A stretch of DNA of 52,166 bases from Chiloscyllium plagiosum (taxonomy: Eukaryota): positions 8,434,475 to 8,486,640 of the forward strand of contig NC_057721.1 in NCBI RefSeq assembly GCF_004010195.1, given 5' to 3'. Below the pieces are notes generated by a model. That model was not told where the DNA came from. It saw only the letters and a program-made list of their open reading frames with translations, and ran no database searches. Shown one piece after another: positions 24,113 to 51,726 of this stretch. The first letter of the stretch is position 1; each line of letters begins with the position of its first letter. A program made the translations under genes and the position numbers.

Positions 24113-25540
24113 TTAGGAGAAAGTGAGGATTGCAGATGCTGGAAATCAGAGTCAAAAGTTTGGTGCTGGAAAAGCACAGCAGATCAGGCAGCATCCGAGG
24201 AGCTGTCTCGACCAGTACCCTTCCACTGACATTCTCATTCGTTTGGCTGAGCTGGTCCTCACCCTCAATTATTTCTCCTTTGAATCCTCCCACTTCCTCC
24301 AGATGAAAGGGGGTGCCATGGCACCCGCATGGGCCCCAGTTTTGCCTGACTCTTTGTTAGTTACATAGAACAGTCCATCTTCCGCAGTTATACCGGCACC
24401 ACCTTTTCCTCCGCTACATTGATGACTATATCGGCGTCATCTTGTGCTCCCACGAGGGAAGTTGAACAGTTCAACAACTTCACCAACACATTCCACCCTG
24501 ACCTTAAGTTCACCTGGACAATCTCAGCCCACCCTTCCAACTGCAATAAGGACAAATCCCCCCCTACCCCCACCTTCCACTCGCCAACCTCTGTATCCTC
24601 TGCCATTTCCGCCACCTACATACGGACCCCACCACTAAAGGTATATTTCCCTCCCCTCCCCTATCTGATTTCCATAAAGACCATTCCCTCCGTGACTCTC
24701 TTGTCAGGTCCACAACCCACCCTCCCATCCCGGCAACTTCCCCTGCCACCGCAGGAATTGCAAAACCCACGCCCACACCTCCCACCTCACCTCCGTCCAA
24801 GGCCCTAAAGGAGGCTTCCACATCCATCAGAGTTTTACCTGCACTTCCACATGTCATTTTCCAGAATCTGTTGCTCTCGATGCGGTCTCCTCTACACTGG
24901 GGAGACAGGACCACATCCATCAGAGTTTTACCTGCACTTCCACATGTCATTTTCAGAATCTGTTGCTCTCGATGCGGTCTCCTCTACACTGGGGAGACAG
25001 GACACCTGCTTGCAGAGCGCTTCAGAGAACTTCTCTGGGACATTCGCACCAACCAACCCTCCCGCCTCATGGCCGAACACTTCAACTCCCCCTCCCACTC
25101 TGCCAAGGACATGCAGGTCCTGGGCCGCCTCCATCATCACACCCTTACCACCCGATACCCAGAGGAAAAACACCTACCTTCCGCCTTGGGACCCTCCAAA
25201 CACACGGCATCAATGTGGACTTCATTAGTTTCCTCATTTTCCCTGCCCCCACCTCATTCCAGTTCCAACCTTCCAACTTAGCACTGCCCTCATGACCTGT
25301 CCTGTCAATCTTCCTTCCCACCTATCCACTCCTCTCTGATTTATCACCATTACTCCCATCTCCATCTACCTATCGCACTCTAAGCTATCTTCCACCCCCC
25401 CAGCCCCACCCTCCTCCCTTTCATCTCGGCTCTCAAGCTTCATTCCTGATGAAGGGTTGTTACCCAAAACATCAATACCCCTGCTCCTCAGATGCTACCT
25501 GACCTGCTATGCTTTTCCAGTACCACATTTTTGGCATCCA
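24113..25540 (+). mobile_element. Penelope-like retroelement fragment (RT plus GIY-YIG endonuclease, terminal pseudo-LTR)
   Basis: LAELVLTLNYFSF..FLQ.KG.AM, FLRYIDD, CSRCGLLYTGETG..L.ERFRE, AEHFNSPSH; inverted partial LTR at the 5' end. Confidence 0.88.
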
Positions 25541-29362: not shown

Positions 29363-29647
<285 letters not shown>

Positions 29648-30746
29648 CTAGTCGTCAAGATATGCTACTCAAATCACTTACTAGAAGTGGTTATTGTGCA
29701 CCTTGTGTATCTCAAAGAAAGCTGCACAAATTCCGTTCGCAGCAAAGGTATCTATTCCTAAATTGATTAACTATTTAAATTGAGAGAAAAAAAACACTAT
29801 TGTCTGGAGGGATTGTATTCACATCTTCTATTAAAAGCAGGATTATAGATATTTCTATATGCAGTGTGCATGTCGATACACAATTTTATTTGAAACGTGA
29901 GTGTGGCAGAAGGCTGGCGAGCAGCTATTATTATTTCTAGACAGAACTGAAGCAGGAATTATAGGTTAATTAGCATCATGTCAGTGGCAAGATAGATATA
30001 AAAACCTCAGTCAAAGTAGTACTAAAAAAAAACCTAGAAACTGAATATGTAATTAGCATGAATTTTGAAAGCGATTGATATCCTCAATCAACCTTATTGA
30101 ATTATTTGCAGTAGTAGCAAATATCGTAGATAAGAGTATACATTAAGACATCAAAGAATTAGGATCAGAGAGTGACTGCTGCATAGGAGGGGTCACTTGA
30201 CTCATCAGATCTACGCTGGCTTTCCAAAGGAACAGTTTGAGACGGTCACTTTGCCATCTTCTTCCTGTAGGCTTGAATATTCTTCAGTGATGAATAATAA
30301 TCTAATTCCCTCTTGAATGCTTTATCCGAACCTGGTTCCATCACACACTCAGGCAATGCATTCCAGATCCTAATGCAACTGTTTTTACTTCTACTTATTA
30401 TGCTAGACCTCCTTCATGCTAAATATTTTAAATATATAAAATGTAAATACATTTACAGAAAGCCTCCAATAAGGTACCAAAAAGAAGATTTGTGTTTTGG
30501 TCAGAACTTGGGAATCACTGTACAAGTTACAGGTTGGACGTAGCAAGCTGGTTACAAAACAGTGTGCGAGTTGTGGGGATCAAAGATCATTATGCAGACG
30601 GAAACAGCCGGGAAATGGTGTATCACAAGAATTGGTACTAGGAACATTATCACAGAAGTGTAATGGAACAGAAGGAAGCATTCATGCTTGCACCAATTTG
30701 TTAAATAAGCATCATTACCTAGTGCCAATCTCTTACTTCCTTCCCA

Positions 30747-30942
30747 AAATGCAGAGGTGCCAGTGTTGAACTGGGGTAGACAAAGTCAGAAGTCACATGA
30801 CACCAGGTCATAGTCCAACAGGTTTATTTGAAATCACAAGCTTTCAGAGTGCTCCTCCATCATCAGCAGCAGCACTCCGAAAGCTAGTGATTTCAAATAA
30901 ACCTGTTGGACTATAACCTGGTGTCGTGTGACTTCTGACTTT
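30747..30942. mobile_element. Palindromic Penelope-derived mini-element, third family (related piece at about 5300-5550)
   Basis: ~65-bp inverted arms; minus-strand CTGATGA...GAAAGCTT at 30866-30838. Confidence 0.72.
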
Positions 30943-31609
30943 CTTCCCATTTGCCTGCATAATATCTTTATCCAAATATTCAATAACCTCCTGAATGCAG
31001 ATTATATGTCATAACTTTAGACAAATAATTTGAATTCAGGTATTAAATAGAATTTAAAACTTTTAAAATTAATACATTTTGGGGCAGTGTGAGTTAGTAC
31101 AGATGAATAATTATAGGAAGAATGCAACGAAATGCAAGAACATTAATACAATTGTCGAATGGATGTGTAATTTTATATAAGTTTCAATATAAAGGTCTGA
31201 GACAACACATCATGGTAGGAAGGATAAGGAGACCACACACTTATTGGAAAATAAACATTAAATTTTGAAGAGGAATAGGGAGATTTGGAGTACAGACATA
31301 AAATTCATTAAAACTGGTCACACATGTTAATGACCAAATTACTTGTGCTCATTTCTAGAGGAATTGAACTGAAAGACAGACAAATTATATTAACTTTGTA
31401 CAGACCCTTGATCAGACCACAGAGTTTGTGAACTGTTCTAGTCTCCATATTGTGAAAAGGTGATAGACACATTGAAGAAGATTCAAAAAAGGATTTACGA
31501 GAATGATACTAGAATGTAGAGGTTACAACTTTCAGGAAATATTAAACAAGCCTTTCTCTAAAAGAAATGACCTGGTAGGGTTTATTAAGGTTATGAAAGG
31601 TTTGACATG

Positions 31610-32032
31610 TGTCACAAAGCTAGTCCCTTTTTTTTTTAAAAAAAAACGGTTCCTTGGCTCAAGGATACTCGGTCCTTGATTATTTTCAAAGCGGTAATAA
31701 ACCAGGCCAGGTTCTCATCAGTCTGGTCTGGTACAGGGATGAAAAGGATTTTGAGAGGCCTTTTGTTCATATGTAAACAGATGAGACTTCAGGCCAAAGT
31801 GGTCATGTTTTAGAAGTGACCTGTATGAAGGGAGTGGTCAGCTCTCTAGCTGCGCTGAGCAGCTTAATTCAGCCTTGAACTGGTAAGAAGTTCAATAGTG
31901 AGCTGTGTGGAAACTCTTTGTCTCTCTCTTTTCTGCCCTTCAACTTCAACCTGTAAGCATGAATTCCATTTATACTGGTTTTTAAAGGGAGTTTGCTTAT
32001 TGGGACTGTTGTGTATATTCGGAACAGTTGTT
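31610..32032. mobile_element. Possible truncated LTR fragment
   Basis: Begins TG, interrupts a CR1, LTR-like composition, ends abruptly. Confidence 0.35.
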
Positions 32033-32344
32033 GGATTCCCTCCAACAACTTGCCCACCACCGATGTCAGGCTCAATGATACAGGTCTCTGTACTGCACTG
32101 GCTATTTCCTGGAATACACACCAAGACAAATAACAACCGCGTAGAGGACCATCTATGCAGTGAAACACACTTTTTGTTCTGCTCAACCTCTCCTCTGCTT
32201 CCACCACTCTGACAGGCAGTACATTACAAATCCTAACAACTCTCTGATTAAAGAAGTTTTTCCTCAGCTGACTCCTAGCTCTCTTGCAGACTATTTTGAA
32301 ATTGTGATCCTTTGTTACTGGCATACCATCGAGTAGATTCAGAG

Positions 32345-33240
32345 TATTGAACTGAATTGAATTTATTGTCACGTGTACCTAGACACAGTGAAAAGCTTTG
32401 TCTTGTGAGCAATACAGGCAGATCACAGAGTTAAGTAGCATAGATAAATAACTAATATGTAAACAGCGGCAAAAACAAAAACACAGGTATAGGCGAATGT
32501 TAAGAGTGTGTGAGTCCATTCAGTGTTCTAACAACAGTCGGGTGGAAACAGTTTTGAAATCAGCTAGTGTGTGTGTGTGTGTGTGTGTGTTCAGGATTCT
32601 GTACCTTCTCCCCAATGGTAGAGATTGTAGAAAAACATTGCCAGGGTGGGGTGGATCTTTGAGAATGTTGCCAGCCTTTCCTTGACAGCGGGCCTGGTAG
32701 ATGGATTCTACAGATGGGAGATTGGCCTTGTGATTGTCCGGACCGAGTTCACCACTCTCTATAACCGTCCTTGAATGGTACAGTTGCCATACCAGGTAAT
32801 GATATATCCAGACAGAATGCTCTCGATGGCGTACCTATAGTTGGCAAGGGTTGGCAAGAGTATTTGCTGTCATGCCAAGTTTCCTCAGCTGCCTGAGGAA
32901 GAAGAGACGTTGTTGGGCCTTTGTAATCAATGCATCAACATGAAGAATCCAAGAAAGCTTGTTGTGGATGACCGCTCCCAGGAGCTTGACACTCTCCACT
33001 TATTCCACCTCTGTGCTGTTAATGTGTAGGGGGGGCGGCATGAGTAACATCCGACGAAAGTCAATAATGAGTTCCTTGGTTTTGCTGGCATTGAGAGCTA
33101 GGTTGTTCTCCGTGCACCATTTTTCCAGGTCTTCACCCTCCCATCTGTAGTCTGTTTCATCGCCATCTGAGATTTGACTGACTACAGTGGTGTCATCAGT
33201 GAACCTGTAAATGGCATTATTCTGGTATTTGGCAACGCAA
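32345..33240 (-). mobile_element. Rex1/Babar-like LINE 3' fragment
   Basis: DDTTVV, KTKELIIDFR, KAQQRLFFLRQL motifs; (GT)n inside; AATTC tail. Confidence 0.75.
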
Positions 33241-34790
33241 TAATATCCTTCCTTACCCTATCAAAATTGTTCATAATTTTGAACAATAATATTAATCTTC
33301 TCTACTCCATGGCGAATAAGCCTAATCTCTCTAATCTTTCCACGTATTTAAAATCCTTCATTCCTGTCTCATTCTAGTAAACTGCCCTTTAATTCTCTCT
33401 CGGGCTTTAACATCCTTCCTTAAATAAAGTGCCTAGAACTGAATACGATACTCCAAATGTGGTCTGACCAATGATTTTAGGAGATGAAGCATCATTTCCT
33501 TGCTTTTATACTCTTATTTATAAACTCAAGGATCTTAGAAGCTTTCTTAACAATTGTTTCAATGTGTCTAGCCACCTTCATGTGAACCTTGAGGTCTCTC
33601 TGCTCCTGTACTCCCCTCAAAGTTGTACCATTAAGCCTATATTGCCTCTCCATGTTTCTTCCATCAAAATGTATCACCTCACATTTCTCTCCATTGAAAC
33701 TGAACTACCAGGTGCCTGTCCATTTGGTCAACTTTCAATGTCCCTCTAAAGTCGCTCAGCATCATCCTCACAATTCACTATTCTCCCTAGTTTAGTATCA
33801 TCTGCAAATGTAGAGATTCTGCTCTCTACACCCATCTCCAAATCATTTATATAAATCAGAAAATGCAAGAGTCCCAACACCCATACCTGGGGAACATCAC
33901 TTTCAACTCATCTCCAAAATGAGAAATGCCCATTTATTCCTATTGTTTCTTATCTTTTCAGCCAACTTCTAATCCATTCCACGATGATCTATCAATCCCA
34001 GACATTTGTAATTTGCTAACCAATCTGACATGGGGCACCATATCCAATGCCTTCTCAAAGTCCAAATATACATCATTCACAGCACTACCATCTTCCACTG
34101 CCTGTGTCACTTCGTCAAAGAACTCAATTAAATTTGTCAGAAATGACCTGCCCTTGACAAAGCCATGTTGAATGTCTCATATTAAATTACTTTTTCCTAA
34201 GTGTACATTTACTTTATCTCATATTATGGCCGCCATCAGGTTTCCTAGTATTGATATCAAGCTGACAGGTTTGTAGTTTCCTGGGTTATTATACTGTTAA
34301 ACAACAGTGTCACATTTGCAATCCACCAGTCCCCTAGAACTAATCCTGTGTTCAGGCAGGCCTGGAAGTTTTCTGTCAACTGCTCCGTAATTTCTCCCCT
34401 AACTCCCTCAGCAGTCGAGGATGCATCCCGTCCAGGCCTGGGAATTTCCCTACCTGGAGTGCTGCCAGCCTTTGTGCATCTCTTCTTTATCTATCAATAT
34501 ACTGTTCAGTTGCTCAACATCTGTGTTTTCAACTAGGCCACTGTCACCATCTTCTAACTTGGTATAGAGAGAAGCAAAATATTCATTTAGGGCCTCTGCC
34601 ATATCTTTTGCTTCAGTGAGCAGATTACCATTCTTGTTCCTTACGGGCCCCACTCTATCTTTTACTCTTAATATATTTTAAGAATATTTTACTATTTGTT
34701 GTGGCACAGCCTGCCATTCTTTCCTCATGCTTCCTCTGAAGTTTCCTTACTCCAGCCTTAGCATCTTCCTGCGATACTCTTTCTAATTTC
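33240..34790 (-). mobile_element. Decayed CR1 LINE
   Basis: QHGFVKGRS, DFEKA.D.VPH, FADDTK, EYRIQF motifs. Confidence 0.8.
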
Positions 34791-34814
34791 TATTGCTATT
34801 ATTATTCTGGTATG

Positions 34815-35220
34815 CCATGGTTGTGGGTATTTTCACCAAGCTGGGAAGTTGATTTGCAGACATTTTGTCCCTGTTTAGGTGACATCTTCAGTGCTTTGGA
34901 GCCTCCTACGAAGCCCTGCTGTACTCTCTCTTCTGGAATTTATTTGGTTCAGTTCCTGCTGCTTCTGGTTGCTTGTTGTCATTACTGGTATATTGGGTCT
35001 ACACATTGGTTGATGTAGTCCGTGGATGAGTACCATGCCTCTAGGAAGTCTCTGGCTGTCCTCTGATTGTTGTGTTGTCCCAATCGAATTTGTGGTCCTT
35101 GTCATGTGTGTGGGGTTACTTGAGACAGCTGATCATGGCGTTTAGTGGCTGGTTGGTGTTAGTGGATGCAGATTGCTAATTGTCTGCCCGTTTGTCCTTA
35201 CAGTGTTTCGTGCACTTAAC
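34815..35220 (-). mobile_element. Penelope-like 3' fragment
   Basis: RDFLEAW endonuclease C-terminal motif; degenerate CTGAAGA...AAAATGTC hammerhead-like core. Confidence 0.6.
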
Positions 35221-36699
35221 CCCTAGGGTGGATTTGAAAGATCCAATGGCAGTATTTCAAAGACAACAAGGAGCCCCACTCTCCTGTCCAATATTTATCC
35301 CTCAATTTGTTTTCTTTTGATGTTAATTGTCTGGTCATAACACATTGTTTTGTGGAAATTCACTGCTCGATTTCCGACATTACAACAGTGACGACACTTC
35401 AAAAGTACTTAATTGATCATAATATACTTTATGTTGGGTGATTGTGAAAAATGCTACCATAAATGGGTGTCTTCTTTCTGTGACTGTAACAGAAAGACAA
35501 AGCCATCATTTAAATGTCCCAACCAAAAGTGCAACATTCTCTCAGTTGTCAGCCTAGACTGTGCTCTACTCCTCAAGTTATGGCTGTGCTCCTAAAGAGA
35601 GAAACAGCTGCACCCAACTGACCTTTCAGTATTACAGACTGAGGGTTCAAGGATCAAGTGCACCATGAGTGACATTTACTAACTTGCATATATAAACATA
35701 TTACTTCTAATACTGAACATGGGTAGTCGAATAAAAACAAAATAAAAATGGCAACTCTAGAAATGATTACCAGCAGTTCTTAAACTAGCCACCATTAGTG
35801 TCACATGATTACTTTGTGACAGTACAACATATGTCACATTTCATTTATGTTAACTGACAAGGGCAACATTTCTAGATTTGTAATGCTGCCAAATATGTTG
35901 TTTACTGTTATACATACGGAAAACAGCCTGCAACAAAGTAACAGGAATTGCATGGTTATTTTCTGAACTCAGTACAGGATTGACTCCGTAATCAGAGGGG
36001 TTAAAATCAACTAGGTAAAAACAATGACTGCAGATGCTGGAAACCAGATTTTGGATTAGTGGTGGTGGAAGAGCACAGCAGTTCAGGCAGCATCCGAGGA
36101 GCGGCAAAATCGATGTTCCGGGCAAAAGCCTATATTGCCTTCATGTGAATAGGTGAAAAAGGAGATAGGCAGGTAGGACAAGTCATGGGGACAGTGCTGA
36201 GCTGGAAGTTTGGATATAAGGTGAGGTGGGGAAAGGGGAAATGAGTCCTTTTCTCACTGGAGGTTGACATCCAGTTCAATGAGGTCATCTAACAGTCCCA
36301 TTTCCGTGTCTATCGCGATTTGATATGGTGCAAGCTTATTTGCCCGGACAGCCAGCAAATTTCCTTTTGAGAAGACCGCCCCGATTGATGATCAGATTTG
36401 TGCAACTCTGCTTCCACCACCACCACCACCGTAATGTTCCAGATCGACAGAACTCAGAGTTCTTTCTCACATTCCTGCACCTTTTGCTCAAAGCCTACGC
36501 ATCTATTTAGAAACTACCAGGCCACTGTCGTTCACATCCTTCAGTCAGGAACCCACAGAAAACAGCTGACATTTAAGTTAAAATGGGAAGTAGATTCCTT
36601 TGGCTGAGCAGCGTGAGTTGTGTTGATCTGCCTCTGCACCATGGGCCCGGCCTGACAAGCAGGTTGTAGCTGAAAAACCGCACAAACGTAAATCCAGGT

Positions 36700-37170
36700 A
36701 TACAGCCTTACGATCATCGTAAAGTTATTTTTAACTTCCGTCCCCGGTCCGTCGAGCGGCCGCACGACGCCAGGAACCCCAGGAGATCACGTGCCACAAT
36801 GGAGGCGGGGCCCCACGGGAGACACGTTTCCCCATTGGCCGCTGAGGGTCACGTGCAGTCTGGAGGCGGGGTCTCCTTGGGAATCACGTGCCACCTATTA
36901 GAGGCGTGGCTCGATTGCGTCACGTGCCGCATTGGCCGGGGCTCGTTTCGCTGAGGGTCACGTGTAGTATTGGAGGCGGGGCACCGTTTGGAGTGATGTT
37001 TAGCATTGGAGGTAGGGCTCCGCGGGAGTCACGTCCCGCTCAGGATCACGTGTCGCATTGGAGGCTGGGCTCTGAGGATCACGTGGGGTTTCATGACGGG
37101 ACTGCTGCCAGGGAAACGTGTCAACCAAGAACCGGTCCCTTGAGTCACGTGGTATTTCGGCCGGTTGGTA
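36700..37170 (-). promoter_or_regulatory. CpG-rich probable RCBTB1 promoter with repeated E-box/CCAAT/GC-box units and an ETS-like CGGAAGT
   Basis: Only CpG-dense segment upstream of the RCBTB1 exons; eight TCACGTG, several ATTGG and GGCGGG; ACTTCCG at about 36734-36740. Confidence 0.7.
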
Positions 37171-37684
37171 TAATTCTGTCCCCAGGCTGTCAGTGCAGAT
37201 CACAGATCACATCAATCGATCCTGTGTGCGATATTCTCCCTACCAGTTACCCACAGTTGGAGCAATGGACTGGAAATTCAAGTTGGATCAGTGAGAATGA
37301 ATAGTTTTCCGCTCAGTGGAGCTGCTCCCTTTGACAAGACATCCCTCTCAGTGATGAATTATTCCTGGTTGAATATTGAGTAGGAGAGCTCTTTGTTACA
37401 TAGGGTCAAGAGACCTTCCCCAACACCAGAAGGTCTAGGTATGATGTATAAATAGAAGGCAGCACTCGCTCAACACTGCATTGGTGTGAAAATTTTGATT
37501 TCATAATCGATTCAAGAAAGATTACAATATTATACAAAATAAATGAAGAATTTATCGAGTGGAAAGAATGCAGTCTACAGAAATACTATAGAATTATTTT
37601 TTTTCAGGAAAGCCTTTGTAAAGAAGATCTGGAAAAATATTCAGTGGTTTTTGTGAGGTTCGTCCCGAGCAGCTCCATAGGGTC

Positions 37685-38340
37685 ATAGTGTCTCACTGCA
37701 ACCCCCAGGTCATCTCCTCTGCCCTGAAGCTCTTCAGCCATGTCCGAAGTGTCAATCTTCCTTCCCACCTATCTGCTCCACCCTCCTCTCGGACCTATCA
37801 CCTTCATCCCCACCCCCATCCACCTATTTTACTCTTTGCTACCTTCTCCTCAGCCCCACCCCCTTCCCATTTATCTCTCTATCCCAGAGGCTCCCTGCCT
37901 TCATTCCTGATGAAGGACTTTTGCACGAAACGTCAATATTCCTGCTTCCCGGATGCTGCCAGACCTGCTATGCTTTTCCAGCACCACTCTAATCTAGACT
38001 CTGATTTCGAGCATCTGCAGTCCTCAATTCTGCCTAGTTGATTTTAACCTTACTGCAAATCCTCTTGCAAGGATGCCTACCTTGAATAAGTTCTCCTCCT
38101 CTCTGCAAAGATCTCAGTGAGTCTCTGTCTCACTGCTACCACCAGGTCATCTCCTCTGCCCTGAAGCTCTTCAACCATGTCCAACCTGTCAATTTTCCTT
38201 CCCACCTATCCGCTCCACCGTCCTCTCCGACCTATCACCTTCATCCCCACCCCCATCCACCTATTGTGACTGAAATGTCGATTTTCCTTCTCCTTGGATG
38301 CTGCCTGACCTGCTGTGCTTTTCCAGCACCACTCTAATCT
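37685..38340 (+). mobile_element. Partial tandem Penelope pseudo-LTRs
   Basis: 37688-37830 repeated at about 38125-38265; CTGATGA..GAAACGTC at 37907-37934. Confidence 0.75.
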
Positions 38341-39738
38341 AGAGTCATAGAGCATGGAAACAGACCCTTTGGTCCAACTCATCCATACCGAACAGATATC
38401 CCAACCCAATCTAGTCCCACCTGCAAGCACCTGGCCCATATCCCTCCAAACTCTTCCTATTCATATACCCATCCAGATGCCTTTTTAGATTAGATTAGAT
38501 TAGATTACATTAGTGTGGAAACAGGCCCTTCGGCCCAACAAGTCCACACCGACCCGCAACCCACCCATACCCCTACATTTACCCCTTACCTAACACTACG
38601 GACAATTTAGCATGGCCAATTCACCTGACCTGCACATCTTTGGACTGTGGGAGGAAACCGGAGCACCCGGAGGAAACCCACGCCGACACGGGGAGAACAT
38701 GCAAACTCCACACAGTCAGTCGCCTGAGGTGGGAATTTAACCCGGGTCTCTGGCGCTGTGAGGCAGCAGTGCTAACCCCTCAGCCTCCGATGCTCCAGGG
38801 AAAACAGCCCTAGCCTATTCAACCTCTCCCTATAGCTCAAATCCTCCACCCTGGCAACATCCTTGTAAATCTTTTCTGAACCCTTTCAAGTTTCACAATA
38901 TCTTTCTGATAGGAAGGAGACCAGAATTGCACGCAATATTCCAACAGTGGCCTAACCAATGCCCTGTCCAGCCACAACATGACCTCCTGTACTCAATACT
39001 CTGACCAAATGCCTTCTTCACTGTCCTATCTACTTGCGACTCCACTTTCAAGGAGCTACAAACCTGTACTCCAAGGTCTCTTTGTTCAGCAACACACCCC
39101 AGGACCTTACTATTAAATGTATAAGTCCTGCTGAGATTTGCTTTCCCAAAATGCAGGACCTCACATTTATCTAAATTAAACTCGATCTACCACTTCTCAG
39201 TCCATTTGCCAATCTGATCAAGATCCTGTTGTAATCTGAGGTAACCTTGTTCGCTGTCCACTACACCTCCAATTTTGGTGTCATCTCCAAGCTTACTATA
39301 TACCTCTGATGCTCACATCCAAATCATTTATATAAATGGTGAAAAGTAGTGGACCCAGCACCAATCCTTGTGGCACTCCACTGGTCATAGGCCTCCAGTC
39401 TGAAAAACAATCCTCCACCACCACCTTCTGTCTTTTACCTTTTACCAAATGGCGAGTCCTCCTTGTATTCCATGAGATCTAACCTTGTTAACCATTCTCC
39501 CATGGGGAACCTTGTCAAACGCCTTACTGAAGTCTATATAGATCATGTCCACCACTCTGCCTTCATCAATCTTCTTTGTTACTTCTTCTAAAAAACTCAA
39601 TCAAGTTTGTGAGACATGATTTCCCATGCATAAAGCTGTGCTGACTATCCCTAATCAGTCCTTGCCTTTCCAAATACATGTACATCCTGTCCCTCAGGAT
39701 TCCCTCCAACAACTTGCCCACCACTGATGTCAGGCTCA
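38341..39738 (-). mobile_element. CR1 (HER1-like) LINE fragment with nested SINE
   Basis: SLTSVVGKLLEGILRD, SQHSF..GKSCLTNLIEFF motifs. Confidence 0.85.
38486..38778 (-). mobile_element. HE1/V-SINE-like SINE with (TTAGA)n tail
   Basis: Near-identical to 43027-43335. Confidence 0.85.
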
Positions 39739-40200
39739 ATGATGCAGGTCTCTGTACTGCACTGGCTATTTCCTGGAATACACACCAAGACAAATAGCAA
39801 CCGCATAGAGGACCATCTATGCAGTGAAACACACTTTTTGTTCTGCTCGAAATGTATTGGTCTTCTAGTGTAAAGAGTTGACCTTGACCAAGCTTTGCAG
39901 ACTGGCACATTTCAAGGTCCAGGACTACACACTGAGGGATGCACTAAAGCTGGGGAGAGACCACTGTTTAAAGTCTTTCTGCCAAAGTATAATGAGGATC
40001 TGTTAAGTCCTGAGACCCCCTTGTTGCATCAAAAGGAATGTTAATAGTTCCCTGAATGAGTAGAAAGTAGCAATTAAGCTCCGAAGAATGTCAGATTTTA
40101 ATGTTGTTTTTCTCTCTGCAAAGACTGTGCAGAACTGTTTCAGTACATTTTATTAAAATTAAGTAATATCTTTGATGTGGATTTGAAGTCAACAATGGAA
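39739..40200 (+). mobile_element. Tx1/L1-like LINE 3' fragment
   Basis: Decayed LFPG.HT.TN, LAHFKVQDY.LRDALK motifs. Confidence 0.55.
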
Positions 40201-43026
40201 ACATGAATTACAACAAACATTCATTTAAAAGGTTTAACTTAAAATAAACCCTTTTAAGGTAATTGCAATCATACAATTGGCACAGTGGGAGTGCCCCTAT
40301 TTCTGGGACAAGAGGCCTTGGTTCCAAGTCCAACCTGGTGCAGAGGTGTGTCATAACATATGAACAGTTGATTCTGTCTATAACCTTCTATAACTGTTAC
40401 CCATCAGCCTACTGTTCGTACAAGTTAAGTGACAAGATTTGACAAATTACTAATTGCTTTTGTAGTGCCTTCCAGGTGAAAATAAAAACTGCAAACTTGT
40501 ATATGCAATAAAAACACCTCATTCTTTCATGTCAGAAGATTTGCTATTGATTCAGGAGCAGCATAGACATTTAAAATAATATGTGAAGGTTTAAACATAT
40601 AAAGGCCTTTTTCAGGAATAAAGGCAGAGAGCCTGAAGCGTGGAGAGATAAGCTAGAGGAGGGTGGGGGTGGGGATAGAGTAGCATAGAGTACAATAGGT
40701 CAGTGGGGAAGGAGATGAAGGTGATAGGTCAGGGAGTAAATTTTCAGTCCTCTCGACCTTGTTGATCACATCTTTGGCCATTTTTGACAGCATACCTGGC
40801 ATTCTCAACAAGTTGAATCATGACAACAACAGATGGAAGCCTGCTCTCGACTGAGATGAACAATGAAGAGGCACTGTATGAGCAGCTTCTACTGCAGGTA
40901 GGCTTTCCTAACTCACCTTGCATCCTCGTTGAAACTCAGTGCTCTCAGTATGAATATTGGGACTAGTGATGTGGATCATCGTGTTCTCGGGGTGTTTTGG
41001 AAGCTTGCGCACACCGTCCGGTCAGGTTTTACAGTTCCTGCGGTGGCAGGGGAAAGTGCCAGGATGGGAGGGTGGGTCGTGGACCTGACCAGGTAGTCAC
41101 GGAGGGAACGGTCTTTGCGGAAGGCGGAGAGGGGTGGGGAGGGAAATATATCCCTGGTGGTGGGGTCTGTTTGGAGGTGGCGGAAATGTCGGCGGATGAT
41201 TTGGTTTATGCGAAGGTTGGTAGGGTTGGATCAGTCGCAATTGGGTTAGTCTACAATGCAAAGGGAAATGCACAAATAAATTCAGGAATTGAGTAAAAAA
41301 AAATCATGGTGATTTCAACTAGCTTGATATTAATTTGGAACTAGAATTTCTCCCATGTGCACAGGACTCCTTTCTCACTCAAAATGGAAGAAGCTCAACA
41401 AATTAATATTCCCTTTTGGATCTGTTAATGGGAAGTAATCCAGAGCAGATAAGGATCTGTTATAAATTTAGATGAAACCAGATGGATTTAGATGAATTTA
41501 GGTGGACGTTTAGAAATTGTATTTAAAAACACAATTTGCACAGACATCAATTTTTCATAACCAAAGAAAATTCTAACAACTTTCATGAGGATATTATGAA
41601 CTTGAAAAATGGGTAAATAATTGGCAAATTTGGTTCAACACAAATAAATGTAAGATAGTTTGTTTGCTTGAAGAGAAAGAGGTCACTCGTTATTTGGGCA
41701 ATTTTAGTATGGAAGGGCAAATGTGTCAGTACGGTTTAGAGGGCCAAAGGATCTGTTCCTATGCTGAATTGTTCTTTGTCCTAAATCCAATCAAGAATTC
41801 AGAAGAAACATCTTCACCCAAAGATGTGAGAATGTAGAACCCACTACCATATGGAACGGTTCAAATATAGATGCATTTAAGATGAAGCTAAGCATGCATA
41901 TGAGGAAGAAGGGTAGACTGAGATGAGTGAACATGGAAGAAGGCTGAAGTGGAGCATAAACAACAGCATTGATTGATTGGGCCAAATGGCCTGTTTCATT
42001 ACTGTGTATCCAGTGCAAAATCCACAAAAACCCATTCAATACAAAAATGTTGAAAACATGACAAAGCCTTGTAGTTTTAGAGTGAAACCAATGAATCACC
42101 ATGCAAAATAAGAATTCCAAAGGAATTGTAAAAACTGAAACAACATAAAAGTATCAGCAATGGCAGCCTGCAAATTCCTTGGGTTTGAGCCAAGTTGGCA
42201 TTCCGACACCTACTACGTGGTAGGGACTGTCTCATCCTCTCTGTGTCCTGAGGGGGTTCATTCACAAAGTCCATACTTGTAGATTACTGCATCAAATGCA
42301 TAAAACTCAACGAAGTTTTTCTTGTAAAACACTCAGGAAACAATTAATGATCCACATGTACCTCTTAGATTGTGTGAAAACATATTTTAAAGGATCATGC
42401 CTTTAACACACTAAAAATTCCCCAAAGTGGCCAAATGGTTTACCTTTCATGTGTACTAACAATTATATTGTCAAACACTGCACTTTGTGCGCAACAAATT
42501 AATCTCTGGTGGATGGTGTGCTTGAGAGATTACTTCTGGTTTGCACATGCACAAAAAAGCTATTTGAAGTACCATGGGATCTTTCTGTCCATCTGACCAA
42601 GTAATAGAGTCTGATTTTAAGGGTTCATTCAAAAGGCATCACCTTCACCAATGCAGCACTTCCCTGGTACAGCCTCAGCCTGGACTGTACACTTAAATTT
42701 TGCAGGCAACTTGTATATGTAAACATCTGAAGTTCTCCCCCATTGTTCTGACCAATAATTAATTCTTAACCAACAACACCAAATCACTAATCTGGTTATT
42801 AAATTATTGCTGTTTTGGAGGTTAGTTCTTGCTTTGTTCAAACTGCCATGTTTCCTACCTTACAACACAGACCAAACCTTAAAAGTTCTCCTTAATCAAT
42901 TTAGGATGCCCCAAATTCATGAATGATAAACACCAGAGATTACAATGTTTGTAAGACTGAGTCTAAGCATGTTTTTGTGGTCAGAGTTTTATTCCAGCTC
43001 TCATATCACCAGCTTCCACCCCTAAA

Positions 43027-43335
43027 TTAGATTACATTACTTACAGTGTGGAAACAGGCCCTTCGGCCCAACAAGTCCACACCGACCCGCCTAAAGCACA
43101 ACCCACCCATACATTTACCCCTTCACCTAACACTATGGGCAATTTTAGCATGGCCAATTCACCTGACCTGCACATCTTTGGATAGTGGGAGGAAACCGGA
43201 GCACCCGGAGAAAACCCACGCAGACACGGGGAGAATGTGCAAACTCCACACAGTCAGTCGCCTGAGGCGGGAACTGAACCCAGGTATCTGGCGCTGTGAG
43301 GCAGCAGTGCTAACCACTGTGCCACCGTGCCGCCC
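43027..43335 (-). mobile_element. Young full-length HE1/V-SINE-like SINE
   Basis: Intact tRNA-like head and core. Confidence 0.88.
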
Positions 43336-43732
43336 AAATTTATTACTTGTTCCAAAAACTCATAGATACATATCTGATACACACACAGTCAATCATATTC
43401 CCAACTAATTATACTCAATTATATAACCATAACACATTCCTCATTTGCACTTGGCTGTGGGCTAGACAATACTAGATAACAACAAGTGCCGTATAAATGT
43501 AGATTCTTTCTCAACAATTGAAAATAAATCTTACAATTTTCCCGTATACATTTAGTATTTTGTGATTTTTGAGAGAAAATATTGTTTATGCCGCAAAATG
43601 AATTTAGCCTTTACTGAAACCAAACTCGATGTCACACAAAATAATCAAACATGGAATTCTGCTCACCTTTTAAAAAAAAACCCACAAAGCTTGGATCTAC
43701 TTGCTTGTTAGATGAAGTAGCAACAAAACTGT

Positions 43733-44068
<336 letters not shown>

Positions 44069-50822: not shown

Positions 50823-51183
50823 TCCCTGCTCCTCGATTCGCAGATTCCGGAACCAGTCTCCTCCAACTTCTCCAGCGGAAAAGGCTCAAGCACATCCAGG
50901 AGCTTTATCTCACTCCTTAAACATCACACTTCTCCTTCCTCACTGTTTTCCAGCCTTGTTCGGGAACATTATCTGCTTCATTAGTCATCTATTCATTCAT
51001 CGAAATCAATCCAAGACGTGCAAAATTAACGAGCGCTTCTGAAAACAAAACTGCAACAATTCCGGTCGGTGAGCACCTTGCAAAGACCACAGACTCTCAC
51101 TTCTCATTGTCACCGCCTGGTGCCGAAAATCGGAATTACAGGCGCTTCATTGGAGTTCGGCACCTCCGGGCGGTCTTTGGGAA

Positions 51184-51726
51184 TTCAGGCTGAGTTTCCT
51201 GCCCCCAGTGGCGGTGTCCGGGAGTTCAGAGTGAGTTTACTCCCCTCGGTGGCGGTGCCCGGTAGTTCAGGGTGAGTTTGCTGCCCCCCGGTGGCGGTGT
51301 CCAGGAGTTCAGGGTGAGTTTGTTGCCCCCCGGTGCCGGTGTCCGGGAGTTCAGGGTGAGTTTGCTGCCCCCCGGTGGTGGTGTCCGGGAGTTCAAGGTG
51401 AGTTTGCTGCCTCCGGTGGTGGTGTCCGGTAGTTCAGGGTGAGTTTGCTGCCCACGGTGGCGGTGTCCGGTAATTCAGGGTGAGTTTGCTGCCCCCCGGT
51501 GGTGGTGTCCGGGAGTTCAGGGTGAGTTTGCTGCCTCCGGTGGTGGTGTCCGGTAGTTCAGGGTGAGTTTGCTGCCCCCCGGTGGCGGTGTCCGGGAGTT
51601 CAGGGTGAGTTTGCTGCCCCCCCGTGGCGGTGTCCAGGAGTTCAGGGTGAGTTTGCTGCCCCCCGGTGGCGATGTCCGGGAGTTCAGGGTGAGTTTGCTG
51701 CCCCCCGGTGGCGGTGTCCGGGAGTT
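51184..51726. repeat. Minisatellite, 13 copies of 41-42 bp (TTCAGGGTGAGTTTGCTGCCCCCCGGTGGCGGTGTCCGGGAG)
   Basis: Unit starts at 51184, 51225, 51266, 51308, 51350, 51392, 51433, 51474, 51516, 51557, 51599, 51641, 51683. Confidence 0.97.

Follow-up and report, generated by a model that had tools for sequence, protein, structure and literature searches.

Tandem repeats whose units can each carry an E-box are reported at the 5' end of the human TYMS gene, where the enhancer region (TSER) consists of 28–34 bp imperfect tandem repeats with USF1 E-boxes (PMC7712088); the TSER is young and polymorphic, usually with two or three near-identical units and a non-canonical box. Homotypic clusters of binding sites are also described as pervasive, and short germ-line insertions are said to often duplicate a bound motif and build such clusters (PMC8559717), the human germ-line duplications described being single events of 5–20 bp. 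Modules that combine E-boxes with other motifs are found in human promoters and LTR12 (PMC4889920, PMC7046753), with the E-box of the known USF/NF-Y module placed 10–12 bp from CCAAT, and with double CCAAT boxes 35–37 bp apart reported as common in human NF-Y regions, where E-boxes or Sp1 sites lie between them (PMC4889920); a closer placement of E-box and CCAAT is said to cause a clash (bioRxiv 10.64898/2026.02.16.706105). Multiple CACGTG words near the start site are described for the CLEAR elements of MiT/TFE factors (PMC7427332), where MITF sites require a 5' T and/or 3' A, are strongest on TCACGTGA and when doubled give more than additive ChIP peaks, and for the E1–E2 elements on which BMAL1/CLOCK cooperates at E-boxes 6–7 bp apart (PMC3043000).

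The array we describe here lies at 36781–37160 of a 52,166-nt stretch of the genome of the shark Chiloscyllium plagiosum (contig NC_057721.1, positions 8,434,475–8,486,640; the whole stretch is referred to as the window). From motif counts, autocorrelation, an alignment of units and the end of RNA at its lower edge we interpret it as a decayed ~35-bp tandem array of ~12 slots in the proximal promoter of RCBTB1. It is like the TSER in unit size, in its position at a gene 5' end, in having units that can each carry an E-box and in the loss of some of these by point change, but it is old and strongly decayed, keeps eight perfect CACGTG words and has an equal number of boxes in two species, and USF binding is reported as shown for the TSER and is predicted for the shark array. 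Like other homotypic promoter clusters it holds many copies of one motif from local duplication, although here the piece copied over and over would be ~35 bp long and bring other motifs with it, unlike the short single events described for the human germ line. With the USF/NF-Y and double-CCAAT modules it has in common the three kinds of motif, a period of ~36 bp and a single 11-bp pair, but the shark E-box lies 4 bp 3' of CCAAT and CCAAT is unconserved as a class; and with CLEAR and E1–E2 elements it shares multiple CACGTG words near the start site, but the window boxes lack a full TCACGTGA and their gaps are 27–82 bp rather than the 6–7 (or 16–17) bp reported for E1–E2. By these tested sequence features the array falls outside the USF/NF-Y composite, CLEAR and E1–E2 classes, and by analogy it would resemble the TYMS enhancer repeat and homotypic clusters in its working. 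We found no description of the array among the papers listed on the RCBTB1 promoter, E-box, TFEB/CLEAR, shark RCBTB1 and USF minisatellites; supplements to genome papers and ChIP work could hold relevant target lists.

Composition and spacing of the array

Eight TCACGTG words start at 36787, 36849, 36884, 36920, 36958, 37046, 37079 and 37145, all on the + strand and exactly where the initial annotation of this DNA had placed them. They make up 8/12 of the matches in the whole window, where the mean expected by chance is 2.26 and a total of 12 was reached in 0/100 shuffles; dinucleotide shuffles of 36600–37300 (n = 2000) gave a mean of 0.13 and a maximum of three, and eight of 11 sites were placed inside 365 bp in 0/200,000 uniform draws. 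E-boxes 1, 3, 6 and 7 (36787–36793, 36884–36890, 37046–37052 and 37079–37085) are of the ATCACGTG type and E-boxes 2, 4 and 8 (36849–36855, 36920–36926 and 37145–37151) of the GTCACGTG type, and with E-box 5 there are four of each.

Start-to-start spacings between the perfect boxes are 33–88 bp, and a ~35-bp lattice of 12 slots is obtained when four decayed slots chosen by eye (36822, 36994, 37029 and 37114) are added to the eight perfect boxes, with successive steps of 35, 27, 35, 36, 38, 36, 35, 17, 33, 35 and 31 bp. The accompanying signal is weak, with an autocorrelation peak at a lag of 36 bp of 0.361 compared with a shuffle 95th percentile of 0.348 and a shuffle maximum of 0.378. Tandem Repeats Finder, which had been suggested as a check, does not call the array at a score of 30, and the mean column identity in an alignment of ten array units is 66%. 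We regard the repeat as old because of this missing call, the lag-36 peak barely above the 95th percentile and the low identity of the units. Helical phasing was not found among the boxes (Rayleigh R 0.16–0.25).

ATTGG occurs five times in the array, with 3/5 sitting 4 bp behind a perfect E-box, and GGCGGG occurs three times. The unit TCACGTG-N4-ATTGG-AGGCGGGG had been called typical, which overstates the case: it is exact in 1/8 units (E-box 5 with 4 bp, ATTGG and GC box, 36958–36982, + strand) and within one mismatch in 3/8. A single E-box/CCAAT pair has the known USF/NF-Y geometry (36834–36855, - strand), the CCAAT being purine-flanked and its E-box lying 11 bp to the 5' side, and is kept in the related species referred to below as organism B. 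The GC box closest to the RNA 5' ends is at 36802–36811 (+ strand; motif match and cross-species comparison), and other GC-box slots start at 36863, 36901, 36973, 37009 and 37061, the last two being degenerate; we take these to be Sp/KLF sites. A 152-codon open frame across the array has no Pfam match, and an Rfam search of 35000–44000 gave a single U8 match (35509–35624) which is at chance level and outside the array.

Other repeats are also present in the window. A young 42-bp tandem array of 13 copies with 90% matches lies at 51179–51726, in a CpG island located in the 5' portion of an EBP-family gene, and is a second repeat-bearing island 14 kb from the E-box array. Further observations are a 92-bp tandem duplication at 24818–25003, within a reading frame that has a weak GIY-YIG match, a 160-bp self-complementary element at 30782–30942, a 152-bp piece (32033–32184) which is 97% like 39697–39848, and, beside the array at 37195–37211, a 7-bp tandem unit CAGATCA of which organism B has one extra copy, pointing to ongoing small duplications.

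The CpG island, exon 1 and RCBTB1

The array lies within a CpG island (36601–37300), with a GC content of 59% and a CpG observed/expected ratio of 0.96 for 36700–37200 compared with 0.31 for the window. Bases changed in organism B amount to 4/100 in CpGs compared with 36/710 elsewhere, and as CpGs thus decay no faster than other bases, which is expected of an unmethylated island, the mutation pattern shows the island to be free of methylation in the germ line; methylation, which the initial annotation had listed as telling against its reading, has left no excess CpG decay here.

Four of 24 sequencing runs were compared with 36490–37680, namely three RNA runs (X17, X20 and X21) and the organism B run (X10). 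It should be noted that none of the three is recorded as RNA and two were labelled RNA by guess only, with spliced RNA being seen in them. All three, which derive from organisms A and C, diverge from this sequence at 36712 and continue in one shared exon: X17 is represented by organism A contigs, X20 by a 2,924-nt contig (depth 61) from organism C which ends at exon 1, and X21 by three raw organism A reads from the ~2% of the run that was read. RNA coverage ends at 36741 and 36753 in the contigs and at ~36768 in two of the raw reads and ~36823 in the third, where the 5' extents were taken from depth bins and three raw reads in all mark 5' ends. RNA over 36850–37600 was not found in the three RNA runs, which is a weak test. 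Since RNA coverage stops where the array begins on its lower side and is not seen over 36850–37600, transcription starts there and heads away from the array, with spliced minus-strand RNA starting within ~20 bp of E-box 1. Depth-bin 5' extents, contig ends and the splice break define a non-coding exon 1 at 36712–36823 (- strand), followed by a splice donor GTAAGG (36706–36711, - strand) which was predicted beforehand and agrees with the loose ends at 36712 in all three runs. With the CpG ratio and these RNA starts just below the array, the promoter assignment of the initial annotation is borne out, and we are almost certain that the array is part of a real promoter.

Exon 1 contains the only copy in the window of the ETS-type word CGGAAGT (36734–36740, - strand), which we presume to be a site for ETS factors. 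An ATG at 36717 (36717–36712, - strand) opens a five-codon upstream frame across the exon 1 junction and is followed by a four-codon frame, and the starts and stops of both are, by eye, identical between the loose ends from organism A and those from organism C; a role in translational control is possible for these frames. Unspliced RNA contigs from the same two organisms cover the start of intron 1 (36518–36741), a piece which differs by just 2.3% in organism B, below the divergence of the array.

The RCBTB1 coding sequence for residues 43–531 was mapped by homology to ten exons between 2720 and 29608 (- strand). The gene name given initially is right, with one exon 89–93% alike for shark RCBTB1 and 73% or less for RCBTB2, and with cartilaginous fishes as the top matches. 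The ATG exon (residues 1–42) was not found in the window by tblastn with seven homologues or with a profile of 33 N-termini, nor did an 18-letter piece of the sequence spliced on to exon 1 match the window at up to three mismatches; the window contains no N. With both the ATG exon and the spliced-on sequence missing, the assembly appears to lack exon 2, either because of an assembly error or because it represents a deletion allele, and the RCBTB1 gene model of this assembly is likely to be wrong at its 5' end because the ATG exon is absent. The region from which this exon is missing corresponds to 29611–36711. As the window does not contain the exon that follows exon 1 in the RNA, we infer rather than see the tie to RCBTB1, and assign exon 1 and the array to this gene by strand, gene order and the length of the 2,924-nt contig.

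The upstream neighbour is an EBP-family gene with its last coding exon at 43733–44068 (- strand; homology) ending 6.5 kb from the array, and which by synteny we assume to be EBPL. In human, ARL11 is located between an EBPL-type gene and RCBTB1; an ARL11-like frame was not found in the ORF list for 37200–43700, between the EBP-family gene and RCBTB1. We take human RCBTB1 to lie at about 50.16 Mb of chr13 (hg19). Sheet 1 of the human NF-YB/USF1 K562 summits has 20 rows for chr13, none of them near RCBTB1 (the nearest is at 50.97 Mb), and a conserved human counterpart of the array is therefore unsupported. Human RCBTB1 is reported to be expressed ubiquitously and to be a CUL3 adaptor (PMC4974088), and such ubiquitous expression would fit a housekeeping promoter.

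Conservation and candidate binding factors

Differences from organism B were available as the first 40 of 55, and as these run in order to 37299 those in the array were taken as complete. The array has 23 substitutions and four indels in 380 bp (6.1%) compared with 4.9% for the whole stretch, so that as a whole it is unconserved, its divergence being no lower than that of the stretch compared. None of the 23 substitutions or four indels falls inside the 56 E-box bases, where 3.4 substitutions would be expected (P = 0.023, or 0.011 with indels; P = 0.06 when measured against the whole-stretch rate), and organism B has the same eight E-boxes, with a change at 37152 turning E-box 8 into a full TCACGTGA. 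As both species share the eight boxes, the set is not biased by having been defined on the window sequence. ATTGG has two changes compared with 1.5 expected, both of which fall in the sole exact unit and destroy its ATTGG, and GC-box slots have two changes and one insertion compared with 3.6 expected, one change improving a GC box; together these two classes have four substitutions compared with 5.0 expected, and when all three classes are pooled four compared with 8.4 (P = 0.04).

Units of the array were also compared with one another. They were anchored on the ATTGG/GC half, as this avoids picking them by their E-box, giving eight anchors in the array (a ninth at 37452 is outside and was dropped), and the E-box slot then matches in 51/56 bases compared with 55/88 for the spacers (Fisher P = 1e-4, with four offsets allowed for the slot and with columns that are not independent). 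The proposed preservation of motif over spacer thus stands for the E-box but not for ATTGG and the GC boxes, which change at the background rate, and similarly the claim of selection on a composite module is retained for the E-boxes only. With eight motif classes examined in a single species pair, represented by one contig, the constraint is suggestive and not proof; we think it probable that the E-boxes are kept by purifying selection, and there is a hint that of the three motifs the E-box alone is under selection. We note that both CATTGGCC copies show an identical C>T difference in organism B (36839 and 36936), with the purine before CCAAT being kept, which hints at gene conversion or at a parallel tolerated change.

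The same E-box words can be read by MiT/TFE factors, SREBP, MAX and BHLHE40. All eight boxes read RTCACGTG, half with G and half with A, so that a 5' T is present in 8/8 and a full TCACGTGA in 0/8 in the window, where the 3' A is lacking, and in 1/8 in organism B. USF, but not MYC-MAX, is reported to favour GT on the 5' side, and SREBP to recognise TCACGTGA as well as ATCAC half sites (PMC8431614). Given the RTCACGTG flanks and the spacing, USF1/2 are favoured over TFEB, MYC and CLOCK/BMAL1, and our best guess from the sequence places USF1/2 at the head, MiT/TFE or SREBP after them and the clock as unsupported; on balance we lean towards a constitutive, USF-type use of the boxes. TFEB control, as had been suggested, is possible but unfavoured. 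Circadian control, suggested alongside it, was rejected on spacing alone, as the gaps of 27–82 bp do not fit the 6–7 bp of BMAL1 E1–E2.

The initial annotation assigned ATTGG to NF-Y, for which most of the sites have the wrong geometry. The canonical arrangement, with the E-box 10–12 bp 5' of CCAAT, is found for 1/5 ATTGG (36834; 11 bp), and in the repeated unit the E-box is 4 bp from CCAAT on its 3' side. NF-Y sites have purine-flanked CCAAT, a rule also visible in the rows of the human NF-YB/USF1 table described below; 2/5 in the array are purine-flanked and 3/5 are preceded by CT, a pyrimidine flank. In 111 of about 2,489 rows of that table (PMC7046753, Table 6), sampled among the higher-scoring rows and with offsets converted to gaps by us, the E-box precedes CCAAT by ~10–13 bp in 56/111 and the shark arrangement occurs in 1/111.

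Origin and use of the array

The spacer at positions -12 to -4 relative to each box, which is outside the named motifs, shows 36% likeness between units, random anchors giving 27% (P = 0.008 for eight boxes and 0.002 for 12 slots), and one 9-mer of spacer is common to two units. As spacer letters are more alike than chance, the tandem duplication proposed initially is supported, and it is very probable that the array arose by old tandem duplication. The cluster could nonetheless be a mutational by-product, in which open germ-line chromatin duplicates sites and one or two boxes suffice, with the rest standing by chance or conversion. This would fit the reported duplication of bound motifs by germ-line insertions (PMC8559717), divergence of the array at or above the flank rate, the decay of 4/12 slots and the hint of conversion in the shared C>T, but we consider it quite unlikely, as there are zero changes in any box between species and as eight boxes are perfect while inter-unit spacers are 35–62% alike, depending on the measure; such diverged spacers argue against gene conversion, which would level spacers too. 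More doubtful by far, and the least probable reading of all, is a solo LTR or other transposon end with U3-like repeats and a TATA box that was co-opted as promoter. Human LTRs are reported to contain repeated E-box/CCAAT/GC units (PMC4889920) and a TATAA follows the array at 37169 (+ strand), but this TATAA is lost in organism B, where a single 1,542-nt contig covers the array at 80% likeness and a flat depth of 10.5, and where repeat copies pile up at 37611–37680 with none on the array. The numbers of TG..CA ends with a target-site duplication (3, 1 and 0) are at the level that chance gives (1.6, 0.36 and 0.12), a second array copy was not found in the window, and the lack of RNA over 36850–37600 points weakly in the same direction. 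We therefore rejected the LTR reading, and neither the transposon nor the satellite that had been named as a possible refutation was encountered with a check sensitive to ~80% identity, at which older families would be missed.

The remaining alternatives concern how the boxes are used. In the same promoter they might serve an inducible factor, be it TFEB or another MiT/TFE member or, at the four ATCACGTG sites, SREBP, and so amplify a nutrient, lysosome or sterol signal. All eight carry the 5' T required by MITF, for which double sites are described as more than additive (PMC7427332), one has become a full TCACGTGA in organism B, and 4/8 are ATCACGTG, to be set beside the words and half sites reported for SREBP (PMC8431614); the high-affinity TCACGTGA is, however, found in 0/8 window boxes, and no RCBTB1–TFEB/CLEAR link was found in the literature searched, making this unlikely. 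A bolder version, in which a tandem expansion in this shark lineage made RCBTB1, which as a CUL3 adaptor is linked to the NRF2 pathway, respond steeply through eight sites that sense an inducible bHLH-ZIP factor (TFEB/TFE3 or SREBP), and in which CCAAT-N4-E-box would be a mutually exclusive switch with NF-Y and the E-box factor competing for overlapping DNA, seems improbable to us. Selection of bHLH, NF-Y and Sp sites as one three-part composite at a 36-bp NF-Y spacing has in its favour the two ATTGG gaps of 38 and 36 bp, close to the human double CCAAT distances (PMC4889920), and the pooled deficit of substitutions; we hold it to be very improbable, since that signal stems from the E-boxes and is absent from ATTGG and GC boxes taken alone, the CCAAT-4 bp-E-box geometry is all but missing from the sampled human rows in which the canonical one is frequent, and most CCAAT are preceded by CT instead of purines.

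We therefore prefer, with some confidence, to see the array as the housekeeping CpG-island promoter of RCBTB1 with a homotypic E-box cluster born of duplication, in which the E-boxes are selected and put to USF-type use. A ~35-bp piece with E-box, ATTGG and GC box would have been tandemly duplicated before the compared species split and would later have decayed, with purifying selection keeping the E-boxes and with CCAAT and GC boxes turning over. A constitutive bHLH-ZIP factor, most likely USF1/2, would occupy several redundant RTCACGTG sites, with Sp/KLF assisting at three or four GC boxes and NF-Y at the single canonically spaced pair (36834–36855). The bound factors would keep the island open and give steady, broad transcription from dispersed starts, with the boxes acting additively or redundantly.

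The array shows no new regulatory principle. It does appear to be a clean natural example of how repetition of a binding-site unit can make a promoter, seen after decay of the spacers, and could serve as a reporter ladder relating site number to expression. As such, it bears on the adaptive-versus-mutational debate over homotypic clusters.
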